Shown in pieces: positions 10,332 through 63,381 of a stretch of 64,000 bases of DNA. The notes under the pieces were generated by a model. That model was not told the origin of the DNA, did not search any database, and saw only the letters and a list, made by a program, of their open reading frames with translations. The translations under genes were made by a program, and so were the position numbers. Source of the DNA: Planctomycetaceae bacterium (GTDB lineage: Bacteria; Planctomycetota; Planctomycetia; Pirellulales; UBA1268); assembly GCA_005791575.1 (NCBI GenBank), contig SXWA01000078.1, positions 6,688 through 70,687 of the forward strand, given 5' to 3'. The first letter of the stretch is position 1; each line of letters begins with the position of its first letter.

Positions 10332-10418
10332 CCTGATTCACCGGCGCCTGATTCACCGGCGCCTGATTCACCGGCGCCTGGAGCACCGGCGCCTGGAGCA
10401 CCGGCGCCTGGAGCACGC
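10332..10418. repeat. 15-bp tandem repeat, about 5.8 copies in two variant blocks
   Basis: CCTGATTCACCGGCG occurs 3 times, then CCTGGAGCACCGGCG occurs about 2.8 times. The array sits in the 168-bp gap between the convergent stops at 10268 (+) and 10437 (-). Confidence 0.9.
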
Positions 10419-11264: not shown

Positions 11265-11401
11265 GGGAGCGGGAGGGTAACCACCGCCAACGGTGGCGGC
11301 AATCGCTGCGGGAACCTACGGAACCGCCGCAGGCCACCCAGGTTGTCGCGACGGTGCTGCCCTTGCCGGCGGCGGGGCCGCGCCCGTACCAACCCGCCCC
11401 C

Positions 11402-12013
11402 ATGTGCGCGTTTTCGATCCCACCGTCGCCGCCCCGTCCCGCCGACCGGCGGCTGGCGGCGATCCTCTGGGCCACCGTGGCCGTGCTCCCCTCCGGTTGC
11501 GAGGTCCGCGACGAGGTCGGGGGGGTCCCGTCCGCGGCCCGGCACGTGTCGGGAGCGGCACGCCTGCTCGACCGGGTACCGAGCAGCGGTCCGCGGCAGG
11601 CGGCGGGAGCCACCGAGCCACGCGTCACCCCGACGGTGGAGTTCGTCGAGGGGTATGAGGCGGGGGTCCGCCGCGCGCGGACCGAGGCACGGCCAATGGT
11701 TCTGGTGTTCAAGGCGGTATGGTGCCGGCACTCGGGCATGCTGCTGCAGCGGACACTGCTCGACCCGCGGGTGGTGGAGCTCTCGCGGCGTTACGTCTGC
11801 GTGGCGATCGATGCCGACCGGGAACCCGACGTCTGCCGCCGCTATGCGGTCACGGCCTTTCCGACGCTGATCGTGGTCGATGCCGCCGGCCGCGCCGGGC
11901 CCCCGACCGTCGGCCGACCGTCGGCGCTGGATCTGCTGGCGGTGTTGGAAGCGGGTGACCGGGACGATGGACCGGAGCGGATCGCGACCGGCGACGACGC
12001 GGTCGCCCGGTGA
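11402..12013 (+). CDS. Thioredoxin-fold lipoprotein with a CxxS (monothiol) motif
   Basis: Only the C-terminal 203 aa of the 526-aa track ORF look real. The ATG at 11402 gives a lipobox (VAVLPSGC). The thioredoxin-like core is PMVLVFKAVWCRHSGML...YAVTAFPTLIVVD. Confidence 0.7.
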   Translation: MCAFSIPPSPPRPADRRLAAILWATVAVLPSGCEVRDEVGGVPSAARHVSGAARLLDRVPSSGPRQAAGATEPRVTPTVEFVEGYEAGVRRARTEARPMVLVFKAVWCRHSGMLLQRTLLDPRVVELSRRYVCVAIDADREPDVCRRYAVTAFPTLIVVDAAGRAGPPTVGRPSALDLLAVLEAGDRDDGPERIATGDDAVAR

Positions 12014-12092: not shown

Positions 12093-13277
12093 ATGGAGGG
12101 GGACCAAGGCGGGGCTGCGACCGGTGGTGTGACGCCGGCCCCGCGACCGGGTCAGGCCGAGAAACCGTTTCACCCCTACCCGGTGTGGACGCCGCGGTTC
12201 TGGCATGGAATGCCCCTCTCGGTCTGGGGGGGGCTCGTGGCCGAACACCACTGCCGCTGCTCCCCGAGCCGCCTCGGCCTGTTTGCCTCGGTGAGCCTCG
12301 CCTCGGTCTTCAACTCGATCGCCGGTGGCCTCACCACCCTCACCCATGGCCGGCGGATCCGCTGCCCGCCGCAGACCCCCCCGCCGGTGTTCATCATCGG
12401 GCATTGGCGGAGCGGGACGACGCTCCTCCACGAGCTGCTGATGCTCGACGGGCGCTTCTGCTGTCCGAACACGTTCCAGTGCATCGCCCCCGGGCACTTC
12501 CTCCTCACGGAACCGTTCCTCGCTCCACTTGTCGCCTGGCTGATGCCGGCGAAACGGCCGATGGACGACGTCGCTGCGGGCCCCGACCGCCCGCAGGAGG
12601 ACGAGTTCGCGCTCGCCAATCTCGGCGCTCCGTCACCCTACCGACGGATGGCCTTTCCGGCGACCAGCCCACCGTGGCCCGTGGCACTCGACCTCGAGTC
12701 GTTGCCTCCCGCGGAGCGGGTTCGATGGCAGGGGGTGATGCGCTGGTTCCTCGCGGCATTGGCGGTGCACGATCCGCGGCGGCCGGTGCTCAAAAGCCCT
12801 CCCCACACTGCCCGGATGGCGATCCTCGCGGAGATGTTCCCCGGGGCGCGGTTCCTCCACGTGGTCCGTGATCCGTTCGTCGTCTTTCCCTCCACCGTCC
12901 GGCTGTGGCGGTCGCTGCACCACACCCAGGGCTTGCAGGTCGATCCGGGAACCCAGCTCGAGGAGTACGTCTTCACGGCCTTCGAGACGATGTACCGGGC
13001 GTTCGAACGCGACCGCGCGGGCCTGCCGCCCGGGGCGCTGCACGAAGTGCGCTACGAGGACCTGGTCGCCGACCCGGTGGGCTGCCTGGAGCAGGCCTAC
13101 GGGCAACTCGATCTCGGGGATTTCGCCGCGGTTCGTCCCGCCTTGGAGGCCGAGGCACGTTCGATGCGTGACTACCGCACCAACAGCTATCAGCACGATC
13201 CGCGCATCGTGGCGGCGATCGGCCGCCGCTGGAGCGGATTCATCGAGCGCTATGGCTACCGGCCACCGGCAGCTTGA
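12093..13277 (+). CDS. Sulfotransferase-family protein
   Basis: The 394-aa ORF has a PAPS 5'-phosphosulfate-binding loop (IIGHWRSGTTLLHELL) and a 3'-phosphate motif (HVVRDPFVVFPS). A GAGGAGG ribosome-binding site precedes the ATG. Confidence 0.8.
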   Translation: MEGDQGGAATGGVTPAPRPGQAEKPFHPYPVWTPRFWHGMPLSVWGGLVAEHHCRCSPSRLGLFASVSLASVFNSIAGGLTTLTHGRRIRCPPQTPPPVFIIGHWRSGTTLLHELLMLDGRFCCPNTFQCIAPGHFLLTEPFLAPLVAWLMPAKRPMDDVAAGPDRPQEDEFALANLGAPSPYRRMAFPATSPPWPVALDLESLPPAERVRWQGVMRWFLAALAVHDPRRPVLKSPPHTARMAILAEMFPGARFLHVVRDPFVVFPSTVRLWRSLHHTQGLQVDPGTQLEEYVFTAFETMYRAFERDRAGLPPGALHEVRYEDLVADPVGCLEQAYGQLDLGDFAAVRPALEAEARSMRDYRTNSYQHDPRIVAAIGRRWSGFIERYGYRPPAA

Positions 13278-13987
13278 CGGCGGGGGGCGTGGAACCGCAC
13301 GCGCGGCCCGGCCTCGACAGCGCGCTGTTCCGCCGCGAACTCCTCTGGCGTCATCCACAGCCGTCGTTCGGCGCGGCGCCGCGCCAGGGCCCATCCGGCG
13401 AGCCCCATGGCCGCGGCGCTGCCCGCCACCGGCAGGAGAATCCTCCGGGCGGTCTCCAGGCTCCCCTGGGCGGTGGCCATCGCATCGGTGGCCAGTGCCC
13501 ATGCCAGACCGTGACACGACCAGACGACGGCTGCGGCGACGAGCGCCAGGCCGATCGCTCCTCCCGCGATCGTCCGCAGCGTGTCGGCGGAGAGGATCCG
13601 CGCCAGGCCCGTCCAGGGGGCGATGCGGCGCAGATCGAAAGCGGCCCGACCGGGGTGCCACTGCACGCCGTCGCAGGCCATACGCACCGCCACGGCGGCC
13701 GCTGTGGCGGCACAGACGATCGTCACCGTCGGCCCCAGCACCGCGACGGCACCGCCCCAGACCGCCACCGTGTCCTCCCCGCGAACCGCCGCCGGGAGGG
13801 CGCTCTGGAAAAACGCGGCCGCCGCGCCGGCGGTCGCCTCCAGCCAGCGGGGCAGCAGCAGGATCGTCACCACCGCCGATGCTCCCCAGGCCGGCAGCGT
13901 GGCGGTGGGGATGAGGCCGGCCCGCCGGGCAGCGTCGCGGCGCCGGGGGGTCGGGGGCAGGCTACGGTCGGCGGTGCTGTCGGACAT
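13256..13987 (-). CDS. flhB: FlhB/SctU-family export-gate protein, transmembrane domain only (no C-terminal autocleavage domain)
   Basis: The 243-aa ORF has an N-terminus DRSLPPTPRRRDAARRAGLIPTA (compare FlhB EKTE.PTPKRL.DARKKGQV.KS). It has four hydrophobic segments. FDLRRIAPWTGLARILS resembles the FlhB P..GLKRIFS box and MTPEEFAAEQRAVEAGPRV resembles MSKQEVKDE.K..EGDP.IK. The ORF stops about 15 aa later, so no NPTH region is present. Confidence 0.8.
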   Translation of the reverse strand: MSDSTADRSLPPTPRRRDAARRAGLIPTATLPAWGASAVVTILLLPRWLEATAGAAAAFFQSALPAAVRGEDTVAVWGGAVAVLGPTVTIVCAATAAAVAVRMACDGVQWHPGRAAFDLRRIAPWTGLARILSADTLRTIAGGAIGLALVAAAVVWSCHGLAWALATDAMATAQGSLETARRILLPVAGSAAAMGLAGWALARRRAERRLWMTPEEFAAEQRAVEAGPRVRFHAPRRQAAGGR

Positions 13988-14005
13988 GGCGGGGTGGGGA
14001 TGGTG

Positions 14006-14809
14006 TCAGCCGGCCGGTGTTCCACCGGTGGCCAGTTCGATGACCGACGATGCCGCCGTGGCGGCCCGGCCGCTCCAGGCGGGGGCGGTGACCAGCAGGC
14101 TGGCGAGCACCAGTGCGGCGACAAGTCCCTGCACGACACCGGGACCGGGTACGAACCGGATCGTGCGCAGGCACATCGCGATGGAGAGGTGGCAGGCGAT
14201 GACGGCGACGAGGGCCGGCACGGCGAGCCCGAGCGCCAGTTCCAGGGCCGCCCCGGGGAGGCTGACGAGGATCGCGCCGGGATCGGCCAATGGGGCCACC
14301 GCCGCGCCGCCGGTGACCATGCCGACGGGAATCGCCTCCAGACTCCACAGCAGCGCCGTGACCAGGGTCCGACACCCGCCGGTGGCGAGGAACGCCGCCG
14401 CTCCCATCCACCACCCGAGGCGGGCGATGCCGGCTGATTGGGGATCGCCCGCCGGCAGGTCGTCGTCCCACGCGAGACCGGTCGGGCCGGCGAGCATGCT
14501 CCCGCTCCAGCCGCCGAGGCCGATCGCCATGGCCGCCACCGTCCCCAGGGCCCAGCCACACGCCATCTCGCCGACGAGCACCAGCGGCACCCGGGACCAG
14601 TGATCGACCACGCCGGCGGCGGGAAGCCCGGCCACCGCCGGCAGTGCCGCGACGACCAGCGCGATGGCGGCGCAGACCGTCACCCGGAGCGGAAGATCGG
14701 CGAGCGTGCCCCGCGAGGTCGCGATCGTGGCGGCCACGATCCGCAGCGCGGCACCGCCTGCCAGGCAGGCGATCGCGCGGGCGTCGGTGTCGGGGGTCAG
14801 GGGGACCAT
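14006..14809 (-). CDS. fliR: FliR/SctT-family export-gate protein
   Basis: The 267-aa ORF is a polytopic membrane protein in the canonical position between fliQ and flhB. The pattern of Gly/Ala-rich helices is consistent with FliR. Confidence 0.8.
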   Translation of the reverse strand: MVPLTPDTDARAIACLAGGAALRIVAATIATSRGTLADLPLRVTVCAAIALVVAALPAVAGLPAAGVVDHWSRVPLVLVGEMACGWALGTVAAMAIGLGGWSGSMLAGPTGLAWDDDLPAGDPQSAGIARLGWWMGAAAFLATGGCRTLVTALLWSLEAIPVGMVTGGAAVAPLADPGAILVSLPGAALELALGLAVPALVAVIACHLSIAMCLRTIRFVPGPGVVQGLVAALVLASLLVTAPAWSGRAATAASSVIELATGGTPAG

Positions 14810-14837
14810 GGGCCTGCCGGGTCGGGGATCGGGGGTG

Positions 14838-15089
14838 TCAGGACGGAGGAACCGCGGCCTGAACGAGGAGATCGACCAGTCGTTCCGCCATCCACGGCAG
14901 CGTGATCAGCAGGACCGTGGCCATGGCCGCCAGCCGGGGCACCAGGGCGAGGACCGGTTCATGGATCCCGGTCGCGGACTGGACCAGCCCGACCACGGCC
15001 GCAACCAGGAGGCCGACCAGCAGCATCGGGGCCGCCACGAGCATGACCGTCCACACCGCCTGCCGGACGAGGTCGCACAGTTCGGTCAT
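14838..15089 (-). CDS. fliQ: FliQ/SctS-family export-gate protein
   Basis: The internal ATG at 15089 is preceded by GGGAGG. It gives an 83-aa two-helix protein, MTELCDLVRQAVWTVMLVAAPMLLVGLLVAAVVGLVQSATGIHEPVLALVPRL.., which fits the FliQ pattern. Confidence 0.85.
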   Translation of the reverse strand: MTELCDLVRQAVWTVMLVAAPMLLVGLLVAAVVGLVQSATGIHEPVLALVPRLAAMATVLLITLPWMAERLVDLLVQAAVPPS

Positions 15090-15109
15090 CGTTCCTCCCG
15101 TTCGCCGCG

Positions 15110-16015
15110 TCAGCCGCTGGGCATCAGGCCGTCGAGCAGCGATCGCACCACCAACGTCCATCCGTCGGCCATCACGAACACCATCAGCTTCAGCGGCAGC
15201 GCGACGACCGCGGGGGGCAGGGTCACCAGCCCCGTCGACAGCACCAGGGTGGCCACCAGGAGATCGATCACCAGGAAGGGCAGCAGGAGCCGGAAGCCGA
15301 TGCGGAAGGCGACGTCGAGCTCGCTGACGAGGAAGGCGGGCAGCAGGCTCTCCAAGGGGACGTCGTCGTAGCTGCGGATCGCCGTCGGGCGGGAGGGATG
15401 CCGCTCCAGGAAGAGCAGCATCGTGTCACGGTTGCCCGCCTCCTCGATCTGACCCGCCATCCAGCGCCGCACCGGGAGACTGCCGCGCTCCACGGCGGTC
15501 GCCAACTCCACCCGACCCGCCTGATACGGTTCGACACCTTCCGTCCAGGCCTGTGTCCAGACGGGCCAGATCACCAGCGCGGAGAGGAACAGCGCGAGGC
15601 TGGTGACGATCTGGTTGGAGGGCAGTTGGGGGGTACCGAGCCCCTGCCGCAGCAACGTGAGGACCACGGAGATCCGCACGAACGACGTGGTCATGAGGAG
15701 CAGCGCCGGGGCGAGGCTCACCACCCCGAAGACCACCGCGGCCGACAGCGAGGCGTCGAGCGAGCGCCCGCCGATGAGCCGCAGCGCCGCCGCCACGACC
15801 GGCGACTCGGCCGCCCCGGTGGCCGCGGGGAGGGGGCGGACCGCAGCCGGATCGCTTCCCACCGGATCGGCACCGGGGGCATCGCCGTGCGCGACGCCTG
15901 CCCAGGCGAACGACAGCAGGAGGGCCGCGACGAGCCGGTGCACGCACCACCGACGCGAGCGCCGGAGGGGGGTTCCGCGGGGGCGCAGCCGCGCCTCGGG
16001 ATCGGAGGTCGTCAT
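15110..16015 (-). CDS. fliP: FliP/SctR-family export-gate protein
   Basis: The 301-aa ORF has a signal-like N-terminus. Hallmark FliP blocks are present: MTTSFVRISVVLTLLRQGLGTPQLPSNQIVTSLALFLS and PAFLVSELDVAFRIGFRLLLPFLVIDLLVATLVLSTGLVTLPPAVVALPLKLMVFVMADGW. Confidence 0.9.
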   Translation of the reverse strand: MTTSDPEARLRPRGTPLRRSRRWCVHRLVAALLLSFAWAGVAHGDAPGADPVGSDPAAVRPLPAATGAAESPVVAAALRLIGGRSLDASLSAAVVFGVVSLAPALLLMTTSFVRISVVLTLLRQGLGTPQLPSNQIVTSLALFLSALVIWPVWTQAWTEGVEPYQAGRVELATAVERGSLPVRRWMAGQIEEAGNRDTMLLFLERHPSRPTAIRSYDDVPLESLLPAFLVSELDVAFRIGFRLLLPFLVIDLLVATLVLSTGLVTLPPAVVALPLKLMVFVMADGWTLVVRSLLDGLMPSG

Positions 16016-16647
16016 GCGGCACCCCGCGACGCGGGGGGCACAGCGGCAACGGGGGCCGGGGGCGCGGTCGGGGTCGGAAGCAGAGGCGTTGCAGGCGCGT
16101 GCTCCGGGCCGGGGCTGGCGACTGTGCCCGCCGTGACCGGGCCGCTCGTCCCGTCGGCATCGCCGCCGAGCGGATCGTCGGTTTCAGCCAAGAGATGGCA
16201 GCCGTTGGGGGAAATGCCCACGAGAAGCGTGCGACGGCCGAACCGGACGACGCGCAGCCCATGTTGTCCACCGAGTGGCAATGCACCGAGGAGCGCCACC
16301 GACTGTGACGGGAGTGCCGCATCGCGGCGCGGGCCGACGCCGCGCAGGATCGCCACCGCGGCGGCCAGGGCTCCGAGGAAGGCCGCCAGCTGCCAGCCCC
16401 AGGGTGACTGGGCTCCCCCCTCCCCCCGGCGCGGGCCGCGGATCGGGCTGCGTTCGAGATCGAAGGGGCTCGGATCGTCGAGGCGGCCCGGGGGTGAGGC
16501 GAGGATCTCCTCCGCGCCCTGTGCCTCCGCGCGGGGTTCCCCCCCGGCATCGGTCTCCGCGGCATGCGCTGGAGTGAAGACCGTGACCGGTGCCACGAGC
16601 AGCAGCGCGAGCAGACCGCTGACGAGCGCCCCGGATCGGGTGTCCAT
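16012..16647 (-). CDS. fliO: FliO-like protein
   Basis: It has a signal sequence, one TM helix (WQLAAFLGALAAAVAILRGV) and a FliO-like C-terminal block (LRVVRFGRRTLLVGISPNGCHLLAE). Its ATG shares one base with the fliF stop (TGATG). Its stop overlaps the fliP start by 4 nt. Confidence 0.65.
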   Translation of the reverse strand: MDTRSGALVSGLLALLLVAPVTVFTPAHAAETDAGGEPRAEAQGAEEILASPPGRLDDPSPFDLERSPIRGPRRGEGGAQSPWGWQLAAFLGALAAAVAILRGVGPRRDAALPSQSVALLGALPLGGQHGLRVVRFGRRTLLVGISPNGCHLLAETDDPLGGDADGTSGPVTAGTVASPGPEHAPATPLLPTPTAPPAPVAAVPPASRGAA

Positions 16648-18128
16648 CACGCCGCCTCCCGCCACCGCTGCGGTGGATCGGCTGCCGGGATGGAGACGCG
16701 CGGATCGGTTTCGATGGCGGACGGTGCGGCGCCGGTGGCCGTCGGGGCTTCCCGCACGTCGCGGTGGCCCCGTGCGCCGGCCCGCCAGAGGAATGCCGCC
16801 AAGGCGAGGGACACCAGCGAGAACGTCGCCAGCAGCAGGCCGCGGCGCAGGATGTCGTCGTCGGTGTCGCCGTTGGCGTCACTGCCGGGGGATCCACTGC
16901 CCTTCCCCAACCAGGCCAACAGCGGCCCGGGGGTGGCCGCGCGTTCCACCGCTTCGGCCTGCCGGCCACCATGGCTCATGCCGCTGGCGAACGGGGCGAC
17001 GACGATCCGCGTCCGCGCGGGATCGGCCACGTCCGGCAGCATCGTCGCGACGAATGACGTGAGCCGTTCCAGTTCCGCCGCCTCGGCCCGCTCCGCGTCG
17101 TCCTCGGACCAGCGGCTGCCACCATCGGCACGGCGCTGCTGCCGGCCGCGTGCGGCGGCGACCGCCGATTCCAGATACGTGTCGGGAACCGCGATGAGCA
17201 CATGGAGGGAATCGCCCGACGGGAGCGGCGCCTCGCGGGCGACCGCCGCGGCGACCGCGGCCGGGGCGTTGGCATCGGCTTGGCTGCCGGTCACCTCGGC
17301 CGGCGCCGGCCCGATCGTCGCTGGCGGGGCTGCGGCGCCGAGCGTGACATCGACGACGACGCCCCGGATGAAGCCGAGCGACTGGCGGATCTTGGCGGCC
17401 GTGGCCCGCTCCAGCCCGCCGCGCGCGGCACGGGCGGGGTCGGTCGTGCCGTCGGCGGGCTCCAGCGGCCCGGCGAACACCCGTCCGCTCCGTAGGTCGG
17501 TGACCGCCACCCGTTCCACGGGCAGGCCGGCGATCGCCGAGGCGACCAACACGCGGATCGCCTGGACCCGCGAGGGATCGAGGTCGCTGTCGGGTTGCGT
17601 GCGGATGCTGACGCTCGCGGTGCGCTCGTATCCCCCGGCGAGACCGGGGCGTGGTGCATCGTCGTAGAGCACCGCGGCCCGCTCGATGCCCGGCATCGAG
17701 CAGAGGACCAGCGAGAGCTCGTCCTGGATCGCGACACGCAACGAATCAGCGCGCAGCGCGGTACTGGTCCAGGGCCCGTTGTTCGCCAGTGCCCGTCGCA
17801 GGCTGGCGCCGAACTCACGCGGCAGCGCCTCGGAGTCGACCAGGGCGCGCATGTAGGCGCTTTGGCGCGTCCGCGGCACGTAGACCCTGCCGCCCTCGGT
17901 GCGATAATCGGTGAGCTGGGCCCGGTCGAAGGCCGCCTCCATGATCGCCAGTTCCGACTGCGGCAGCACCGAACCCTCGAGCAATTCCGCCTCTTCGCTC
18001 GCCGGCCGGTCACGGAGCATCCACGCCGACCAGCCGATGGTGACGACGAGCAGCCCGAGGGCCATCGCCTGCAGCGGGCTCAGCACGGCGGGCCGACCGG
18101 CAACGACGATCCGGGCATCTGGGTCCAT
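16647..18128 (-). CDS. fliF: FliF/SctJ-family MS-ring protein (493 aa)
   Basis: Only the C-terminal 493 aa of the 789-aa track ORF look real, starting at the ATG at 18128. It has an N-terminal TM helix (LQAMALGLLVVTIGWSAWML). YscJ/FliF-like periplasmic blocks follow (IMEAAFDRAQLTDYRTEGGRVYVP..., ASVSIRTQPDSDLDPSRVQAIRVLVASAIAGLPVERVAVTDL). A C-terminal TM helix (LLLATFSLVSLALAAFLW) is followed by a cytoplasmic tail of only about 45 aa. Confidence 0.8.
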   Translation of the reverse strand: MDPDARIVVAGRPAVLSPLQAMALGLLVVTIGWSAWMLRDRPASEEAELLEGSVLPQSELAIMEAAFDRAQLTDYRTEGGRVYVPRTRQSAYMRALVDSEALPREFGASLRRALANNGPWTSTALRADSLRVAIQDELSLVLCSMPGIERAAVLYDDAPRPGLAGGYERTASVSIRTQPDSDLDPSRVQAIRVLVASAIAGLPVERVAVTDLRSGRVFAGPLEPADGTTDPARAARGGLERATAAKIRQSLGFIRGVVVDVTLGAAAPPATIGPAPAEVTGSQADANAPAAVAAAVAREAPLPSGDSLHVLIAVPDTYLESAVAAARGRQQRRADGGSRWSEDDAERAEAAELERLTSFVATMLPDVADPARTRIVVAPFASGMSHGGRQAEAVERAATPGPLLAWLGKGSGSPGSDANGDTDDDILRRGLLLATFSLVSLALAAFLWRAGARGHRDVREAPTATGAAPSAIETDPRVSIPAADPPQRWREAA

Positions 18129-18166
18129 GAGGGGGCCGCTCGGAGAGCACGGGAGGGAAACGACGA

Positions 18167-18661
18167 TCAGGCCGCACGGCGTTCCGTGAGGCGGCGCGGG
18201 AAGCGGAGGGTCACTGCGGTTCCACCCTCGGGGCACGGGCGCACGTCGAGGGTGCCCCCCAGCCTCCGGGCGGCGTCGCCCTGACGCTCGAGCCACGCGT
18301 GGTCGAGTGCCGAGGGTTGCGGTCCGGAGTCGGCGACCTCGAGTTCGATCGCGTCCGGCAGCAGCACGCTCGTCACCACCACCTCGCGGCGCCCCACCCC
18401 CACGGCCGCACCGGTCGATCTCCGGGCCCGGTTCACCAGGTCTCCGAGCATCTCGGTGAGCAGATCGGGATCGGCGTGGATGACGTGGGCATCGGGCACG
18501 TCGATCGTCAACGTGGCGCCGCCGCCTGCACCGCCATCGTCGCCGCCGACGGCCGCATCGACGACACGCCGGGCGCCGACCCATGTCGGGCGCGCCGCGC
18601 CATGGGCGGCCCGCAGCGGGAGGGTCATCGGTTCGCGGTGATCGATCGTGGGCTCGGGCAT
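18167..18661 (-). CDS. Stand-alone HATPase_c (histidine-kinase-like ATPase) domain protein; possible RsbW/SpoIIAB-type anti-sigma kinase
   Basis: The 164-aa ORF has an N-box-like LTEMLGDLVNRARR, a G1-like IELEVADSGPQ and a C-terminal GGTLDVRPCPEGGTAVTLRFP. No HisKA or dimerisation domain is present. Confidence 0.6.
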   Translation of the reverse strand: MPEPTIDHREPMTLPLRAAHGAARPTWVGARRVVDAAVGGDDGGAGGGATLTIDVPDAHVIHADPDLLTEMLGDLVNRARRSTGAAVGVGRREVVVTSVLLPDAIELEVADSGPQPSALDHAWLERQGDAARRLGGTLDVRPCPEGGTAVTLRFPRRLTERRAA

Positions 18662-18697
18662 CGCTGTGGTTCGCCGGGGTGGAGCGGAGGGGCCTGG

Positions 18698-19408
18698 TCA
18701 GGCGGGGCAGACGGGGGTGGCCACCGACACGCCGCCGCACACCGCGTCCATCAGCCAGCGATTCACGTCGCGGAGGATCGCCGGCGCGAGGTCGTGCGGT
18801 TCCTGGTAGATCCGCATCGAGAGCTGGGCACCGGCGGCATGGAAGAGCCGCAGTGTCATCGAGGTCGTGGCGACCATGTCGGCCTCCGCGTCGCGGCGGC
18901 AGCAGAGCAGCACCGGGAGCCGGCGCACCGCCGACAGCCGGGCGAACAGCGCCTCGGCGTGGGGAAAGGCACCGCCCAGCGAGACCATGCCGGCGAACCG
19001 ATCGGCATGCCGGCAACCGACCCGGAACGCGGCCGTTCCGCCATCCCCCCGTCCGATGAGGAACACGCGGTCGGGATGCACGTTGGCCCGCTCAGCGGCC
19101 GCGTCGATCGCCTCCCAGACGGCGTCCTCGATCGCAGCGGGGCGATCCTCGGGGCCGATCACCGGTTCCACCGCGAGGTAGTTGCGGGTGCTGAGCCGGT
19201 TCATCGCCTTTCCGAGGTCGAACCGTCGCGACCCCGGTAGCCAGACGAGGAGGGGGTAGGCATACCCGGGCTCGTAGCCCTGCGGCATGAAGACCCGCGG
19301 TTGCCGGTGCGCACGCTCGCGGGATGCTGCCACACGGACGGGGCGCACGGAGACCGTGCGAGCCGGGAACCGGTGGTCGAGACCGCCATCGGATGGAATC
19401 GCAGACAT
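18698..19408 (-). CDS. Alpha/beta-hydrolase-fold protein (phospholipase/carboxylesterase-like) lacking the nucleophile serine
   Basis: The 236-aa ORF has YPLLVWLPG... and DRVFLIGRGDGGTAAF, where esterases of this type have GFSQGG (GxSxG). A later Asp and His are present (CCRRDAEAD, EPHD). Confidence 0.65.
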   Translation of the reverse strand: MSAIPSDGGLDHRFPARTVSVRPVRVAASRERAHRQPRVFMPQGYEPGYAYPLLVWLPGSRRFDLGKAMNRLSTRNYLAVEPVIGPEDRPAAIEDAVWEAIDAAAERANVHPDRVFLIGRGDGGTAAFRVGCRHADRFAGMVSLGGAFPHAEALFARLSAVRRLPVLLCCRRDAEADMVATTSMTLRLFHAAGAQLSMRIYQEPHDLAPAILRDVNRWLMDAVCGGVSVATPVCPA

Positions 19409-19601: not shown

Positions 19602-23048
<3,447 letters not shown>

Positions 23049-23052
<4 letters not shown>

Positions 23053-23327
23053 GGCCGTGCGTTTCCCGGACCATCGCCGTCGTCCGTCGGGCGCTGGCGT
23101 CGCATCTCGCGCCACACGTACAGTCCGAACGATCCGGCGAGCGTGAACGGCATCGCCAGCATCAGAAGGATGCTGTAGAAGTAGCCGCGCGCCAGGTTGG
23201 CCGCCGCCGCATCGCCGTCGGCGAGGGAGTCTTTGCAGGTCGGGCAGCCGAGCGCTTCACCGGCGACCAGCGCTGCACCGCAGCCGATCACCACCGCCAT
23301 CATCAGGGCGCGAGTCCGGAGCGGCAT
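23049..23327 (-). CDS. Small two-TM protein with an extracytoplasmic CPTC motif
   Basis: The internal ATG at 23327 gives a 92-aa protein: MPLRTRALMMAVVIGCGAALVAGEALGCPTCKDSLADGD...ARGYFYSILLMLAMPFTLAGSFGLYVW. The upstream part of the track ORF is Arg-rich junk. Confidence 0.6.
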
Positions 23328-23964: not shown

Positions 23965-24656
23965 GGTGCGGCTCCGCCAACGGGTTCGGCGAGGACCTCG
24001 CGGATCAGTTTGACCAGGAGTTCCACCCGGTCGGGCTGGAGGAGATGGTAGCTGCCGCGGAGCCGCCCCTCCCGGTCGAAGACGACCCCCCGTTCCGAGT
24101 GGACACCGACTTCGGCCGGCAGGAGGAACGTCTTGTTGGCCACCGTGCGGATGACATCCATGTCGCCGGTCAGGAACTTCCACCGCGCGGGATCGGCGCC
24201 GAACCGATCGGCATAGCGGCGGAGCACCTCGGGGGTGTCATTGTCAGGGTCGCAGGTGACGCTCACCGCCACCAGGTCGGGGTCGTTGACCTCGCGGAGG
24301 ATGTCGGCGACCGCTTGGTTCTCACGGAAGCAGGGCCCAGGACAGTTGGCGAAGAAAACGCTCGCCAGCCACACGCGGCCACGAAGAGCGGTCGAGTCGA
24401 AGGGACTCCCCGTCTGGTCGGTGAGCGTGAACGGGGCCGCTGGGTCGCCTGGTTTGACGACCGCCGGTGCGGGTGTGACATCGGCCGTGCCGGCGGATGC
24501 CGGAGGGGGCGCCACCGGTTGCCGTGTGCATCCCGCCAGCAGCAGCGCGGGCACTACGAGCAGGCTGTGGACAAACAGCCTGCTGCACCGGAGGGATCCG
24601 GTGCCGGGAGCGCAGCTCCCGTGAAAAGCGCAGCTTTTCGGATGGCCAAAGGCCAT
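23961..24656 (-). CDS. SCO1/SenC copper chaperone (thioredoxin fold, lipoprotein)
   Basis: It has a lipobox (ALLLAGC), a CPGPC copper-binding motif (VFFANCPGPCFREN) and a downstream His (VGVHSERGVVFD). The start is uncertain. The ATG at 24656 and an alternative at 24779 both lie inside the 123-bp repeat copies. Confidence 0.85.
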   Translation of the reverse strand: MAFGHPKSCAFHGSCAPGTGSLRCSRLFVHSLLVVPALLLAGCTRQPVAPPPASAGTADVTPAPAVVKPGDPAAPFTLTDQTGSPFDSTALRGRVWLASVFFANCPGPCFRENQAVADILREVNDPDLVAVSVTCDPDNDTPEVLRRYADRFGADPARWKFLTGDMDVIRTVANKTFLLPAEVGVHSERGVVFDREGRLRGSYHLLQPDRVELLVKLIREVLAEPVGGAAP

Positions 24657-24803
24657 GGATGGACTTTGGCCACGGGCTGTCAGCAGGCTGTGGACAAACA
24701 GCCTGCTGCACCGGAGGGATCCGGTGCCGGGAGCGCAGCTCCCGTGAAAAGCGCAGCGTTTCGAGTGGCCAAAGGCCATGGATGGACTTTGGCCACGGGC
24801 TGC
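24561..24803. repeat. 123-bp REP-like element in two tandem copies, each with two hairpins
   Basis: Copy 1 (24561-24683) and copy 2 (24684 to about 24803) are near-identical. Each contains CAGGCTGTggacaaACAGCCTG and GGCCAAAGgccatggatggaCTTTGGCC. The array lies between coxIV and SCO1 and overlaps the SCO1 5' end. Confidence 0.9.
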
Positions 24804-27657: not shown

Positions 27658-28814
27658 GCGGAGACCTCCCGCATGCTTCGGCCAGCGAACGCCGTTGACG
27701 GATCAGCCGTCCAGACGAGCATGAGCACGACCGATGCGCCGAGGATCATCATCCCAAGGATCGCATGGCCGGTCACCACCAGCGCACCGCGAATGCTGCG
27801 CGCCACAAGCGGGCCACTCGGGGTCCACGCATCCTGGAACCAGCCGGCAGGCACACCATAACTCACCAGCCACGCGCCGCAGCCGAGGAGAATCTGGCAG
27901 CCGACGAGGGCGAGGATGGTCCGCGACCAGCGCCGGGCGGCCGGAGGTTCGTGCGGCTGCCACGCGAGGGCCGCCAAGGCGGCGAGAACGACCACGGCGG
28001 CGGCGCCGATGAGATGGAACGACACGATCCAGCCGAAGTCGGTGGGAGTGAGGGTCGCGTCGAGGTGCCGGAGTTGGGCACCGGCGACCAGTTGGAGGTA
28101 CGCGGCCGCCACGAGCGCAGGGGGCACGAAGCCGGCTGTGGCCCACGAAGGCAAAGCCGAGGGCAAAACGGAAGGCAAAGCCGAGGGCAAAACGGAAGGC
28201 AAAGCCGAGGGCAAAACGGAAGGCAAAGCCGAGGGCAAAACGGAAGGCAAAGCCGAGGGCAAAGCGGAAGGCGGGCCGACCGTCGACGGAGCGCGGCGGG
28301 GCGGACGGGCGCCGTCCCCTGCCCCGATTGGCGGATCATTGCGCTGGCGGAACGCCAGCGTGGCGATCGCGGTGGCGACGGCGAAGAACAACGGGCCGGT
28401 GCAGGCGTGGACCTTGGCGATCGTCTTGTCGTCGAGGAGCACGCGCATCCCGCCGAGCACCCCCTGGACCACCACGAGGAGGACGGCCGCCACGACCAGC
28501 CCGCGGATCGCCGGATTGCTCGGCCGCAGCCAGACCAGACCGGCCAACACCAACGTGATCAGGCCCACTGCCGCCCCGAGCAGCCGATGGCCATGCTCGA
28601 GGAACAGGTCCCAGGGTCCGCCGAGCCAATCAGCGAGGGGAAAAAGAAACATGTTGTGGCCATACGTCGCCGGCCAGTCGGGCACCGCCATCGCCGCGTC
28701 GTACGTCGTCACCAAGGCGCCGAAACAGAGCAGCACTGCCGTCATCCCCACCAGTAGGCAGGCGACCAGGAGGGTCAGGAGGGGACGCGGGGAGACTGTC
28801 GCAGGGTCGGCCAT
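27654..28814 (-). CDS. ctaA: Haem A synthase (COX15/CtaA family)
   Basis: The ATG at 28814 gives 386 aa. It contains TTYDAAMAVPDWPATYGHNMF, LEHGHRLLGAAVG and, in the second half, HLIGAAAV and VTGHAILG, which are paired His-containing helices. It also carries the in-frame SALPSVLP repeat. Confidence 0.85.
   Translation of the reverse strand: MADPATVSPRPLLTLLVACLLVGMTAVLLCFGALVTTYDAAMAVPDWPATYGHNMFLFPLADWLGGPWDLFLEHGHRLLGAAVGLITLVLAGLVWLRPSNPAIRGLVVAAVLLVVVQGVLGGMRVLLDDKTIAKVHACTGPLFFAVATAIATLAFRQRNDPPIGAGDGARPPRRAPSTVGPPSALPSALPSVLPSALPSVLPSALPSVLPSALPSVLPSALPSWATAGFVPPALVAAAYLQLVAGAQLRHLDATLTPTDFGWIVSFHLIGAAAVVVLAALAALAWQPHEPPAARRWSRTILALVGCQILLGCGAWLVSYGVPAGWFQDAWTPSGPLVARSIRGALVVTGHAILGMMILGASVVLMLVWTADPSTAFAGRSMREVSA
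28150..28269. repeat. 24-bp in-frame tandem repeat, 5 copies, inside ctaA
   Basis: GGCAAAGCCGAGGGCAAAACGGAA is repeated 5 times, and the last copy has one substitution. On the - strand it encodes (SALPSVLP)n in the central loop of CtaA. Confidence 0.95.
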
Positions 28815-48346: not shown

Positions 48347-49015
48347 ATGAACGCGATCCAAGTGGGTGGCGTGGCCGGCGCGATGCCCGTGACGGTTCCC
48401 AGCACGCTCGGCCTGAGTGTGCTGGTGCTCAATCGTTCGTTCGTGGCGGTGCACGTCACCAACGTGCGCAGGGCGGTGACGCTCCTCTTCCGTCGTTTGG
48501 CGGAGGTGGTGCACATCGACGAGGGGCAGTTCGCGGCCCATTCGCTCGAATCCTGGCGCGAATTGTCGGCCATGCAGGCGGCATTCCGCACGGCTGACCA
48601 GGATTGGATCCACGCCGTCGGCTACGAATTGCAGGCTCCCCGGGTCATTCGTCTGGTGGCCTGCGACAGGGGGCCGCGTCCCGGGATCCGCTTCAACAGG
48701 CGCAACGTCTTCGCCCGTGACGGCAATCAATGCCAGTACTGCGGGCGGCATTTTCCCACCAGCGAACTCTCACTCGACCATGTCGTGCCGCGAAGCCGTG
48801 GCGGGATGACGAGTTGGGAAAACATCGTCTGCGCGTGCGTGGCCTGCAATGTCCGTAAGGGTGGGCGGACGCCGCACGAGGCGCGGATGCAACTCATCCG
48901 CCACCCGCTCAAACCGAAGCGGAGCCCGCTGCTGTCGATGAAACTCGGCAACCCGAAATACGAGAGTTGGAAGAGCTTTGTTGACAGCGCGTATTGGCTT
49001 GTGGATCTGCGCTGA
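48347..49015 (+). CDS. HNH endonuclease-family protein
   Basis: The ATG at 48347 gives 222 aa. The HNH core reads RDGNQCQYCGRHFPTSELSLDHVVPRSRGGMTSWENIVCACVACNVRKGGRTP. Confidence 0.85.
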   Translation: MNAIQVGGVAGAMPVTVPSTLGLSVLVLNRSFVAVHVTNVRRAVTLLFRRLAEVVHIDEGQFAAHSLESWRELSAMQAAFRTADQDWIHAVGYELQAPRVIRLVACDRGPRPGIRFNRRNVFARDGNQCQYCGRHFPTSELSLDHVVPRSRGGMTSWENIVCACVACNVRKGGRTPHEARMQLIRHPLKPKRSPLLSMKLGNPKYESWKSFVDSAYWLVDLR

Positions 49016-49172
49016 GGAAGTGTCGCGCCCCGGGTGCAGTGCTGGATGATCAGCGCGTATTGGCTTGTGGATCTGCGCTGAGGAAGTGTCGCGCCCCGGG
49101 TGCAGTGCTGGATGATCAGCGCGTATTGGCTTGTGGATCTGCGCTGAGGAAGTGTCGCGCCCCGGGTGCAGT
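48986..49172. repeat. 66-bp tandem repeat, about 2.8 copies, beginning inside the HNH gene 3' end
   Basis: Unit starts are at 48986, 49052 and 49118. Each unit carries AGCGCGTATTGGCTTGTGGATCTGCGCTGA (SAYWLVDLR plus stop) and 36 further nt. Copies 1 and 2 are identical as far as I can read. Confidence 0.95.
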
Positions 49173-60826: not shown

Positions 60827-61323
60827 GTCGGGCGGACCGTGTCCGCCACCGGGTTCTCTTTCGGCTTGATCGGTGCCCGGGGAACCGGTACCTCTCGCTG
60901 CCCAACACGTGGGTGCCAGGAGACGAACCCCGGATGGCCTTGCCGATGCACCCTTTGCCGGGCCGCGGTGACCGTGACCGAATCCTGACCGTGCGCCGTG
61001 GGCCCTCCCGGGCCGGTTTCGGCGGGGCTGCCGCGCCAGTCGGGTGGCGGGACTCCATTGCCGTGTGGCTGCCGTGGATTGTCGCGCCGGTCTTCGTCGC
61101 CCTGCCCATCGGGGGATGCGGCATGGGGGAACGGCTGCGGCAGGCCGCGGCCCGTCCGATCGCCGCACCAGCCACCGGTGAAGGCACCAAGGGGGGCGGC
61201 CCGGTGACGCTCGTGACCTTCGAGCCGCGATAGGGCGGGCGCACGGCCGGCCCCTCCAGTGGCATTCCCCGGTCGGCCGCACTACCGTGGCAGGGAATCG
61301 TCACGGGCCCGGGAGAGTGCCGG

Positions 61324-63381
61324 ATGTCATTGCGTTCGCGGATCGCCCTCATCGCCGGGTTGCTGGTCCTCGCGTCGATCGCGGTCACGAGCCTGCTGCA
61401 GACCTGGGCGGCCCGGCGGGCCGTCCTCGAGGAGGTGCGCAGCAGTGGCAACGGCGTCGCCGAGGTGCTGGCCCGGTCGGCCGCGCTGGCGGCGGAGGTG
61501 CCGCGGGCGGTGGAGACGGAGATCGGCGAGCAGATGCTCACCCAGGCCCGGTTGCTGGCCGAGGTCGTGGCCCTGGCCGACCAGGCGGGACTGAAACCCG
61601 AGGAGGTCCGCGCCCGTCTCCGGGGGATCGCGGCCCAGGGGGGGATCGAGCTGCTTGCCACCGACGAAACGGGCAAGGTGGTCATCGACACCGGCGACGG
61701 CGCCGAGGGCTGGACCTTCTCGTCCAATCCCGCGGCGCAGCCGCAGGCCCATGTCTTCCACAAGCTCCTCACCGGTGACCTGCCCAGCATCGTCCAGGAT
61801 TCGCAGCGGCGCGAGATCGATGACCGGGTCTACAAGTACGCGGGTGTCGGCGGGGTCGATGGCCCGCGGATCGTGCAGGTGGGCATGGAAGCCACCTTCT
61901 TCGATCGCGTCGATCGCAACCTCGGGCTCCGTCGCCTGGTGCACGACTTGGTGGCTGGCGACGTGCGTGAGGTGCGGATCCTCGACGAGCGCCAGGTGCC
62001 GGTTGTCTCGCGGCGCGTCGATGATGCCGGGATCGTCACCGACGCCGATCTGCCGGTCGACGCGGCCGATGGAGCGCTGATCGGATCGGCGGCGGCCGCG
62101 GCCGGGCCGGTGGGCCGCTTCGACTCCGATGCCTACGTCGTCGCCGCCCCGGTGCGCCGCAACGACGGCGCCCCGGCCGGCGCCGTGCTGGTGAGGATTT
62201 CCACCGCCGCCAGCCGGGAGGGGCTCGCGTGGCAGGCGGCTGCCGCCGTGGCGAGCGGATTGCTCGTCGGGCTCCCGGGGGTCCTCGGTGCCCTGTGGTT
62301 GGCCCGCTCGATCGCCGAGCCGGTCCGGCGCTCGATGATGGTGGCCGAGTCGATCGCGGCGGGTGACCTCACCGTGCCTGTGCCGCCGGGGGGCAGCGAC
62401 GAGTTGGGGAGGCTGCTCGCCGCATTCGAGGCGATGTCGGGGTCGCTTCGCGGGCTCATCGGCCGGATCCAGGATTCAGGGTTCCGCCTGTCGGTGAGCG
62501 AATCCGACGCGGCCGCCGCCCTCGCCCGCCAGGAGCGGTCGATCCACGGGTTCAGCGGCTCCGCCGCCGACATCTCTGCCGCGGTGACCGAGATCGCCAC
62601 CACCGGCGAGCAGCTGCTCAGCACCACCAGTGCGGTCACCGACGTGGCCCGGGAGGCCGCCCGTGTCGCCGACCAGGGACGCGACGGTCTGCTCGGCATG
62701 TCGACCTCGATGCAGCACCTCGACGAGGCGATGAACGCGTTCACCCGCAAGCTGGGGACGATCAGCCAGCGGGCGGCGGGAATCACCACCGTGGTCACCA
62801 CCATCGCCAAGGTCGCCGACCAGACGAACCTGTTGAGCGTCAACGCCACGATCGAGGCGGAGAAGGCCGGTGAGGCGGGGCGTGGCTTCCGGATCGTCGC
62901 CCAGGAGATCCGGCGTCTCGCCGATCAGACCGCCCTGGCCACCAAGGACATCGAGCGCATGGTCCGCGACATGCAGGCCGCCGTCGCCAGCGGGACGATG
63001 GAGATGGACCGCTTCCGCAACGAGGTCAGCGCACGGATCGGCGAGGTGTCGCAGGTGAGCGAACAACTCGGTCAGATCATCGAGCCGGTGAAGTCGGTGA
63101 CCCAGTCGTTGGAGACGGTCCACGACGGCATGCGGACCCAGGCCGTGGGGGTGCGGCAGATCCGCGATGCCATGGAGAAGCTCCGTGCGGGCGCCGGGGA
63201 ATCGGCGTCGTCCACCGTGATCTTCGCCTCGACCCTCGCCGATCTGCGGCGCTCGATCGCCGAACTCAACGCCGAGTCGGCGCGGTTTCTCACCGCCGAC
63301 GGATTGCCCACCGCGCCCGCGGCGGACCACGACACGCCGGCCGAGCCGTGGAACGGCGGCAGGCTCGTGCCGCCGTCGTGA
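61324..63381 (+). CDS. Methyl-accepting chemotaxis protein (TM, periplasmic sensor, TM, HAMP, signalling domain)
   Basis: The 685-aa ORF has an N-terminal TM helix, a periplasmic region of about 290 aa, a second TM helix and a HAMP domain ([22 protein letters not shown]). The highly conserved hairpin tip is present ([39 protein letters not shown]). Confidence 0.92.

Follow-up and report, generated by a model that had tools for sequence, protein, structure and literature searches.

A conserved ring-and-gate gene block in uncultured Pirellulales, a probable remainder of a flagellar locus

Introduction

In Salmonella, FliO chaperones the assembly of FliP, and FliP, FliQ, and FliR together with the membrane domain of FlhB form the core that seeds the FliF (MS) ring of the flagellum. 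Even inside its FliF ring, this core is generally considered to be of no use in the absence of FlhA, the ATPase, and the switch. Here we describe a block of eight genes, including fliF, fliO, fliP, fliQ, fliR, and flhB, in a stretch of 64,000 nucleotides (nt; the window) of contig SXWA01000078.1 from a Planctomycetaceae bacterium of the order Pirellulales (assembly GCA_005791575.1). The other two genes lie directly upstream of fliF and encode an alpha/beta-hydrolase-fold protein (hyd) and a HATPase_c-like protein. The block has in common with the flagellar gate and MS ring of flagellated Pirellulales, Salmonella, and Vibrio homologous proteins, the fliO-P-Q-R-flhB order, and the position of an orthologous locus, as well as the three ring-building motifs (RBM1-RBM2-RBM3) and both transmembrane (TM) helices of FliF and the N-terminal motif and membrane domain of FlhB. 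It differs in that the locus has no genes for FlhA, FliHIJ, FliG/M/N, FliK, the hook, or the stator, FlhB has no C-terminal switch domain, FliF has neither the beta-collar nor the FliG-binding tail, and fliF abuts fliO.

Other reduced or monitored flagellar systems offer partial parallels. Buchnera aphidicola is non-motile and keeps flagellar basal bodies under selection, presumably for another purpose. It retains FlhA, the ATPase, C-ring, rod, and hook, mainly without flagellin, whereas the block is far smaller and has no engine. In Campylobacter jejuni, completion of the MS ring and the export apparatus is monitored by FlgS, a soluble kinase. A soluble kinase gene of the AtoS/ZraS/FlgS type likewise lies beside fliF in flagellated relatives of the window, and a remnant of it is kept with FliF and the gate core. 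The likeness is one of type; the FlgS model scores far below its cut-off, and the remnant lacks the phospho-acceptor domain and ATP-binding motifs. The orphan FliI, FlhA, and FliF of Chlamydia (PMC2830194) are also isolated export homologues in a lineage without flagella, and FliF is kept by both; Chlamydia differs in keeping the engine and ATPase rather than FliOPQR-FlhB and in having a separate injectisome.

Loci Related to the Block Form a Reductive Series

The explanation that fits best overall, and that we regard as probable, is that the block descends from a flagellar locus by reduction and has kept its ring-plus-gate core, preferably as a membrane-ring platform. Gene contexts of relatives were reached via the nearest FliP and FlhA sequences from outside the clade of genomes that carry the block. 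With malate dehydrogenase (mdh) upstream and convergent sulfotransferase and thioredoxin genes downstream as anchors, loci are of three types. Flagellated loci (L085, L086, L088, L089, L093, and L094) have the order ...fliI-fliJ-x-fliK-flgD-flgE-flbD-motA-motB-x-fliN-fliO-P-Q-R-flhB, with an FlhB of 358–366 amino acids (aa), and continue with the convergent sulfotransferase gene and flhA-flhF-flhG-fliA; in L093 and L094, a thioredoxin gene follows the sulfotransferase, before flhA. Flagellated loci that include the fliF end (L112, L118, L122, and L124) read mdh-hyd-(TPR)-FlgN-histidine kinase-fliF-fliG-fliH-fliI-fliJ. In intermediate loci (L087, L090, L091, and L092; table 1), mdh-amidase-hyd-fliF-fliG-H-I-J is followed by fliN (82 aa), fliO-P-Q-R, and flhB (271–288 aa, no C-domain), then by sulfotransferase and thioredoxin genes and flhA-F-G-fliA. 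The reduced type, found in the window and in 80 loci, reads mdh-hyd-kinase remnant-fliF-fliO-P-Q-R-flhB (243 aa), and its sulfotransferase and thioredoxin genes are followed by unrelated TPR and ABC-2 genes.

The order mdh-hyd-...-fliF also occurs in L087, L112, L113, L118, L122, and L124. Identities between L087 and the window are 77% for mdh, 33% for hyd (E 6e-27), 35% for FliF, 28% for FlhB over its full length, 47% for the sulfotransferase, and 39% for the thioredoxin. Because the mdh/hyd and sulfotransferase/thioredoxin flanks are shared, the compact cluster is what remains of one long main flagellar locus of Pirellulales. Deleted relative to the ancestral locus are fliG-H-I-J-K, flgD-E, flbD, motAB, and fliN, plus flhA-flhF-flhG-fliA, which amounts to two losses, one of the fliG-to-fliN stretch and one of the flhA-fliA operon.

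A preliminary description of the window, made from its sequence, had left a choice between a scattered piece of a flagellar regulon and a reduced ring-plus-gate module with accessory proteins of its own. Synteny and the loss of contact regions described below favor the module over the scattered piece. The accessory proteins, however, are not peculiar to it, as HATPase_c-type kinase and hydrolase-like genes lie upstream of fliF in flagellated relatives too. The expectation that fliF is normally separated from fliOPQR by fliG-fliN holds for flagellated and intermediate relatives at this same site. The common order flhB-flhA does not extend to Pirellulales: in the loci examined the two are never directly adjacent, even in flagellated members, because the sulfotransferase gene separates them, and the missing flhA after flhB therefore carries no weight as an argument.

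Intermediate loci share with the reduced type the mdh, hyd, sulfotransferase, and thioredoxin flanks, an FlhB without C-domain, and a short, collar-less FliF. They differ in that they still encode FliG, FliH, FliI, FliJ, a short FliN, FlhA, FlhF, FlhG, and FliA, and their FliF keeps the FliG-binding tail. The intermediate operon is without fliK, flgD, flgE, flbD, and motAB. The intermediate type may represent a flagellum whose other genes have moved elsewhere, or a derivative that only secretes.

Some neighbors follow the locus across types. A Sulfotransfer_3 gene convergent on flhB (orthologues 42–49% identical) is present in most flagellated and in all intermediate and reduced loci examined, and persists even where surrounding flagellar genes are lost (window and L086-L094). 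Between hyd and the kinase gene, flagellated relatives have a gene for an FlgN-like chaperone and one for a large TPR protein (L112:2148-2609 (-), L118, and L124), both absent from the reduced type. Two proteins encoded upstream of mdh, at 20657-22003 (-) and 22000-23058 (-), have no Pfam match and are syntenic clade-wide; one of them, unk448, is 41% identical to the product of an L087 gene at the same place.

Organization of the Block

All eight open reading frames (ORFs) lie on the minus strand at 13256-19408 (table 1), and their G+C content at third codon positions is of the coding type (GC3 0.79–0.91; G+C of the window is ~70%). Independent public annotations of four contigs with identical FliF contain the same eight genes, and Pfam scores of FliP, FliQ, and FliR all exceed the gathering scores. 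As read from the sequence, the fliF stop and fliO start share GTGATGG (TGATG type), and the fliO stop and fliP start share GCATGACG (ATGA type). Intergenic gaps are 20 nt (fliP-fliQ), 28 nt (fliQ-fliR), and 18 nt (fliR-flhB), with 36 and 38 nt in the two gaps upstream of fliF. The preliminary description is thus borne out in its cluster from fliF to flhB, with all eight ORFs in place and supported by Pfam, in both overlaps, and in all five gaps. It had also found no other core flagellar gene in the 64 kb, and Pfam scans of the other sizeable ORFs of the window agree: they detected no FlhA, FliI/H/J, FliG/M/N, rod, hook, filament, or Mot protein. By Pfam, the remaining ORFs include respiratory, biosynthetic, and transport genes and one gene for a methyl-accepting chemotaxis protein (MCP).

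Table 1. Positions of the block genes and synteny anchors in the window and of the intermediate-type loci on their own contigs
Feature	Coordinates	Strand	Description
Alpha/beta-hydrolase-fold protein (hyd)	18698..19408	-	236 aa; first block gene; without catalytic triad; weak Abhydrolase_2/Esterase Pfam matches
HATPase_c-like protein	18167..18661	-	164 aa; degenerate remnant of the catalytic domain of the flagellar-locus histidine kinase
FliF-like MS-ring protein	16647..18128	-	493 aa; Pfam YscJ_FliF 52.6 bits
FliO	16012..16647	-	211 aa from ATG at 16647; alternative GTG at 16665; Pfam FliO 29.4 bits, TIGR03500 32.4 bits
FliP	15110..16015	-	301 aa; export-gate pore subunit; Pfam FliP 208.5 bits
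FliQ	14838..15089	-	83 aa; Bac_export_3 72.9 bits
FliR	14006..14809	-	267 aa; Bac_export_1 49.4 bits
FlhB, membrane domain only	13256..13987	-	243 aa; Bac_export_2 66.7 bits; no C-terminal autocleaving domain
Sulfotransferase	12093..13277	+	Convergent; serves as synteny anchor and is not counted among the machine's components; Sulfotransfer_3 1e-32
Thioredoxin-like gene	11354..12013	+	Second synteny anchor; public gene call, Thioredoxin_7
Malate dehydrogenase (mdh)	19602..20546	-	Upstream synteny anchor; Ldh_1_N and Ldh_1_C
Intermediate-type locus L087	3772-12790
Intermediate-type locus L090	1-7569
Intermediate-type locus L091	1-7636
Intermediate-type locus L092	1-7499

Retained Proteins Lack Regions That Contact Missing Partners

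In alignments and models, the retained proteins have lost the regions that would contact the missing partners. FlhB covers only positions 2–235 of 335 of the Bac_export_2 profile and, in a profile search of the PDB, aligns to residues 4–249 of 376 of Vibrio FlhB. The FlhB proteins of flagellated relatives have a C-terminal domain with an NPTE motif, whereas those of the intermediate and reduced types stop just past a conserved MTPEE helix. All of ~53 complete orthologues end within 0–31 aa of the C-terminus of the window protein, and the conserved N-terminal motif is retained.

The AlphaFold model of FliF (mean predicted local distance difference test score, pLDDT, 71.6) comprises TM1, RBM1, RBM2, a split RBM3, and TM2. 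It places ~37 aa after TM2 (422–456), shorter than the cytoplasmic tail of ~45 aa given in the preliminary description. Where the beta-collar lies in Salmonella, the protein of flagellated L122 (551 aa) contains ~100 inserted aa and that of L087 only 7 aa; the reduced type has, in place of a collar, a Pro/Ala-rich linker that is disordered and includes a conserved ADANAPAE motif. The C-terminal ends are DDPDAAATILRNWIGKAA in L122 and QDPRAAASVLKTWIGNAS in L087, and the reduced type is without their motif (DP..A..L..WIG), which we take to be the FliG-binding motif. Conservation of FliF peaks in RBM1-RBM2, the part of FliF that faces the gate in solved basal bodies.

Changes extend to the pore. 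The FliP gasket reads SMGMMMLPP in flagellated relatives, STGLVMLPP in 52 of 69 clade members, and STGLVTLPP in the window, such that one of three gasket methionines is kept in most of the clade and none in the window. Intermediate-type FliP is closer to the flagellated form, with SMG-M-(F/V)-M. In a sister lineage with FliF-FliP fusions the gasket is decayed further, to AAGISSLSP and AAGLPSLSP. FliQ keeps a Glu/Arg pair at what is presumably the latch position, by comparison with the FliQ Glu/Lys latch.

Adjacent genes of the block are often fused in one frame. FliF is joined to FliO in ~16 loci (L024, L028, L030-L033, L035, L037-L039, L045, L050, L051, L063, L066, and L081) and FliO to FliP in ~25 (L007-L012, L014, and others), and two proteins, P0123 and P0125, are single FliF-FliP ORFs of 758 and 666 aa. 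In Salmonella, ring and pore subunits occur at a ratio of ~34:5. A FliF/FliP fusion implies equal synthesis of ring and pore subunits, at odds with that ratio unless the products are processed.

The Proteins Are Flagellar Rather Than Injectisome-Like

Public annotation gives cause to ask whether the block is instead a horizontally acquired, non-flagellar type III secretion system. JGI annotates the ring protein as EscJ, and its small size and the lack of FliG and of a C-ring would also suit an injectisome. Yet when the flagellar and Sct equivalog models of NCBIfam are compared, the flagellar model scores higher for every core protein: FliP scores 211.5 with TIGR01103 (cut-off 217.45) versus 145.8 with SctR, FliQ 61.9 versus 37.3 with SctS, and FliR 30.7 versus 21.2 with SctT. 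All six core proteins miss their NCBIfam equivalog cut-offs; FliP comes nearest and FliQ, FliR, FlhB, FliF, and FliO are far under. Profile searches of the PDB with the FliF-like protein return flagellar FliF exclusively, and a Foldseek search with its model ranks FliF (4.7e-16) ahead of EscJ/PrgK (3e-4). The position of the block, orthologous to that of a flagellar locus, also argues against an injectisome, and SctC, SctV, SctN, and SctD are found neither in the window, by Pfam scans, nor in the clade loci. On this evidence, an injectisome-like origin is hardly credible.

The presence of FliO points the same way, with a reservation. The preliminary description treated FliO as specific to flagellar systems, a restriction that is no longer regarded as strict (bioRxiv 10.1101/2025.05.06.652439). 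The survey in that preprint does not mention Planctomycetes.

Other Flagellar Genes Are Not Found in the Clade Loci

Whether the block is one piece of a split but complete flagellar regulon depends on where the missing genes are. Twenty flagellar proteins of relatives have no tblastn match in 1.19 Mb of reduced-type sequence, in which positive controls worked. FlhA is found neither in the window, nor in these clade loci, nor at the syntenic site of flhA in relatives. FliH/FliI/FliJ and FliG/M/N, whose genes sit between fliF and fliO in intermediates, have no match in the window or clade loci. The six closest FlhA relatives examined, 70–74% identical to intermediate-type FlhA, are all on contigs of the flagellated or intermediate type, and none of those with NCBI accessions corresponds to any of the 80 accessions of the metagenome-assembled genomes (MAGs) that carry the block.

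In a split regulon, cells would swim by means of genes located elsewhere, including flhA, fliGHIJ, fliMN, motAB, the rod, hook, and filament genes, and one for a separate FlhB C-domain. Flagellar genes are indeed spread over several loci even in flagellated Pirellulales, in which flhA never comes directly after flhB, an MCP gene lies within the window, the negative results cover loci rather than whole genomes, and an FlhB without C-domain coexists with FlhA, FliI, and FliG in intermediate loci. But the genes are gone from positionally orthologous sites and from the clade sequence searched, and none of the six FlhA relatives is on a contig of the reduced clade. An altered FliP gasket and a FliF without FliG-binding motif and beta-collar are hard to square with a functional FliG, rod, and export cycle. 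If FliG, the rod, FliK, and the regulatory circuit had been lost, changes of the kind seen in FliF, FlhB, and the kinase would be expected. In addition, the inventory of Andrei et al. 2019 (PMC6461901) assigns a flagellar apparatus only to Nemodlikiaceae and three other MAGs and not to Vodnikaceae, the family to which three of the 80 MAGs are assigned (ZH-3NOV15-plancto3, -5, and -7). We consider a complete flagellum encoded in pieces improbable in these genomes.

The MCP (HAMP and MCPsignal; 61234-63381 (+)) is encoded in a region, and probably in a whole genome, that has no flagellar motor genes, and may belong to a Wsp-like pathway. Andrei et al. (PMC6461901) report such a pathway in all of their groups.

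The Block Is Widespread and Under Purifying Selection

In a scan of one genome per species, 109 stretches with a FliF relative were confirmed, so that the block occurs in at least 109 species-level genomes; the best 80 of the 109, extending 10 kb to each side of the block, were analyzed. All 80 are MAGs of uncultured freshwater organisms, mostly lake-water Pirellulales/Planctomycetia. Databases hold at least 455 relatives of the FliF-like protein, and every named one is from a planctomycete. The eight genes have the same order and strand in 54 of 80 loci, the remainder being truncated by contig ends. Across the clade, identity to the window proteins is highest for FliP (61–87%) and lowest for the HATPase-like protein (34–76%); FliP and FliQ are the best-conserved genes of the block.

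Purifying selection acts on the whole block across more than 100 species. Ratios of nonsynonymous to synonymous substitutions (dN/dS; Nei-Gojobori, five close pairs) are 0.02–0.4 for each of the eight, similar to that of the neighboring sulfotransferase, and many positions in FliF and FliP are invariant clade-wide. Hence the genes are not decaying. A functionless leftover on its way to loss might be suspected from the several missing domains and motifs, from the failure of all six core proteins to reach equivalog cut-offs, and from the absence of the kinase remnant in two loci (L054 and L082). Against it, reading frames are intact and gene order is constant in each of the 54 loci of sufficient length, in a clade with FliF identities down to 45%, and the selection data largely refute it. 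Such decay is very improbable.

The block is built wholly of known families. What sets it apart is a minimal composition that lacks FlhA, conservation across more than 100 species, and the occurrence of intermediate loci. No prior description of it was found in the searchable literature on planctomycete remnants of flagella or type III secretion systems.

The Two Upstream Genes Are Old Neighbors of fliF

The HATPase_c match of the window protein (24.8 bits) is just under the gathering score of 26.4, and 13 of 16 orthologues match the family. In tblastn searches, the protein is orthologous to a soluble HisKA+HATPase_c kinase of ~300 aa encoded upstream of fliF in flagellated relatives (E down to 3e-27, 49–52 reduced-type loci). 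That kinase, of the AtoS/ZraS type, contains HisKA and a HATPase_c domain that is complete in its N, G1, F, and G2 boxes; it scores 71.5 bits with the NCBIfam FlgS model. The remnant is without HisKA, the Asn of the N-box, and a 17-aa stretch with the F and G2 boxes. Because the phospho-acceptor domain and ATP-binding motifs are lost, it is predicted to be a pseudo-kinase incapable of signaling by phosphorylation. L087, the sole intermediate locus that reaches the site, has no kinase remnant. An RsbW-type anti-sigma kinase was considered and rejected on account of this orthology and of PDB profile matches to FixL/ZraS kinase domains (4.5e-7).

The hydrolase-like protein has an esterase fold by PDB profile search (LC-Est1C, 1.3e-9). 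Its nucleophile elbow reads GRGDGG, as the preliminary description had it, and at the nucleophile position 71 of 73 orthologues have G, A, D, or R and two have Ser; the His and Asp positions of the triad are not conserved. Orthologues in flagellated (L122 and L112) and intermediate (L087) loci are also without the Ser. Both upstream genes are thus old members or neighbors of the fliF operon, and the possibility that they are novelties of a reduced module was rejected, as both are found upstream of fliF in flagellated relatives.

C-terminal alanines recur in the block. Of 73 orthologues of the kinase remnant, 72 terminate in Ala-Ala (window 18167-18172; orthologues in L005-L084), and wherever FliF is unfused its C-terminus reads R-x-A-A (64 of 64 orthologues in the alignment; window 16650-16655). 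FliO ends in AA in 22 of 45, and the other block genes have no such tail. In flagellated L122, FliF ends in KAA and the kinase in AAAA. A mere by-product of translational coupling was rejected for the kinase remnant, which is followed by a 38-nt gap. In Caulobacter, FliF is degraded via its C-terminus, and the Ala-Ala may be an ssrA-like protease tag.

Proposed Origin and Function

With reduction of a flagellar locus as the probable origin, the ancestral operon would have been mdh-hyd-(FlgN)-kinase-fliF-fliG-H-I-J-x-fliK-flgD-flgE-flbD-motA-motB-x-fliN-fliO-P-Q-R-flhB, followed by the sulfotransferase gene (with thioredoxin) and flhA-flhF-flhG-fliA. Stepwise deletions would have joined fliF straight to fliO-P-Q-R and to an flhB limited to the membrane domain. 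As in Salmonella, FliO would aid assembly of FliP, the FlhB membrane domain with FliP, FliQ, and FliR would form a helical gate core, and this core would seed the FliF ring via RBM1-RBM2. The tight coupling of fliF-fliO-fliP and the frequent fusions in relatives fit such co-assembly. Since FlhA, FliHIJ, FliG, FliN, the stator, the hook genes, and the FlhB switch domain are missing from their ancestral sites, the complex is predicted to be incapable of rotating, exporting flagellar parts, or building a flagellum. Retention of the core under selection suggests a use other than swimming.

What that use would be is tentative. The reading we prefer, somewhat short of an even chance in our assessment, is a ring platform on which other cell functions depend, for example, an assembly checkpoint or a polar landmark, with the two degenerate proteins as cytoplasmic partners. 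A platform accounts for the persistence of all assembly factors alongside relaxed sealing and switching elements, and it fits the retention of the kinase remnant.

Alternatively, the complex may be a minimal channel that works independently of FlhA and the ATPase, in which a FliPQR pore, an FlhB membrane collar, and a FliF ring with altered gating pass a substrate or ions. Of all block genes, those for the pore subunits FliP and FliQ show the highest conservation, the gasket has changed in most of the clade to one conserved new motif (STGLVMLPP) instead of decaying at random, and the FliQ latch pair and the FlhB N-terminal motif are retained. However, loss of FlhA abolishes export in the systems studied, and the block has no energy-coupling component and no candidate substrate genes beside it. 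The gaskets of the sister lineage with FliF-FliP fusions also suggest a relaxed constraint on sealing. We consider a channel unlikely. In a wider formulation, which we consider doubtful, the ring-plus-gate core is a self-sufficient machine, either a channel free of FlhA and ATPase or the base of a checkpoint or of a cell structure not yet seen, required by these non-swimming planctomycetes. If so, the three locus types record the stepwise dismantling and re-use of a flagellum, with a bearing on the origin of injectisome-like systems.

Several observations weigh against a reduced flagellar locus kept as a platform. We know of no mechanism that opens or powers a FliPQR-FlhB gate without FlhA and of no documented function of a bare ring, and the proposed role is therefore a conjecture. 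In a neighbor-joining tree of FliP, the clade is on a long branch and not beside the intermediate type, so that the sister relation of reduced and intermediate types rests on synteny. The 20 kb around the block are collinear throughout the clade; adjacency alone thus does not prove a joint role of the ring with hyd and the kinase remnant. The remnant is absent from two loci. A scan for promoters and terminators gave no usable signal at the operon ends and recognized no promoter. Absence of genes was scored in loci rather than complete genomes, and FlhA, FliI, FliG, or flagellin could lie elsewhere; the MAGs behind the published inventory are only 60–80% complete (PMC6461901).

If the block is nevertheless a reduced locus with a retained core, it matters in several ways. 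A large natural clade with the core alone under purifying selection points to a second function of that core. The block is a naturally minimized complex for structural and reconstitution work, and reduced and intermediate loci provide a stepwise series in which to test the loss of flagella or their conversion to other machines. For annotation, pathway-based inventories of MAGs may score the block as partial "flagellar assembly," whereas the evidence suggests that no flagella are built.

Other Features of the Window

The window also contains several tandem repeats. A 66-nt unit is perfectly repeated 2.8 times at 48985-49172, between genes for an HNH-domain protein and a ferredoxin. At 24559-24802, upstream of SCO1/cox genes, two tandem copies of a 123-nt unit are 97% identical and apparently non-coding. 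A 24-nt unit present 5.2 times at 28147-28272 lies in a CtaA-like ORF and encodes PSALPSVL repeats, and a 15-nt unit is present 5.3 times at 10332-10410, near the TPR gene.

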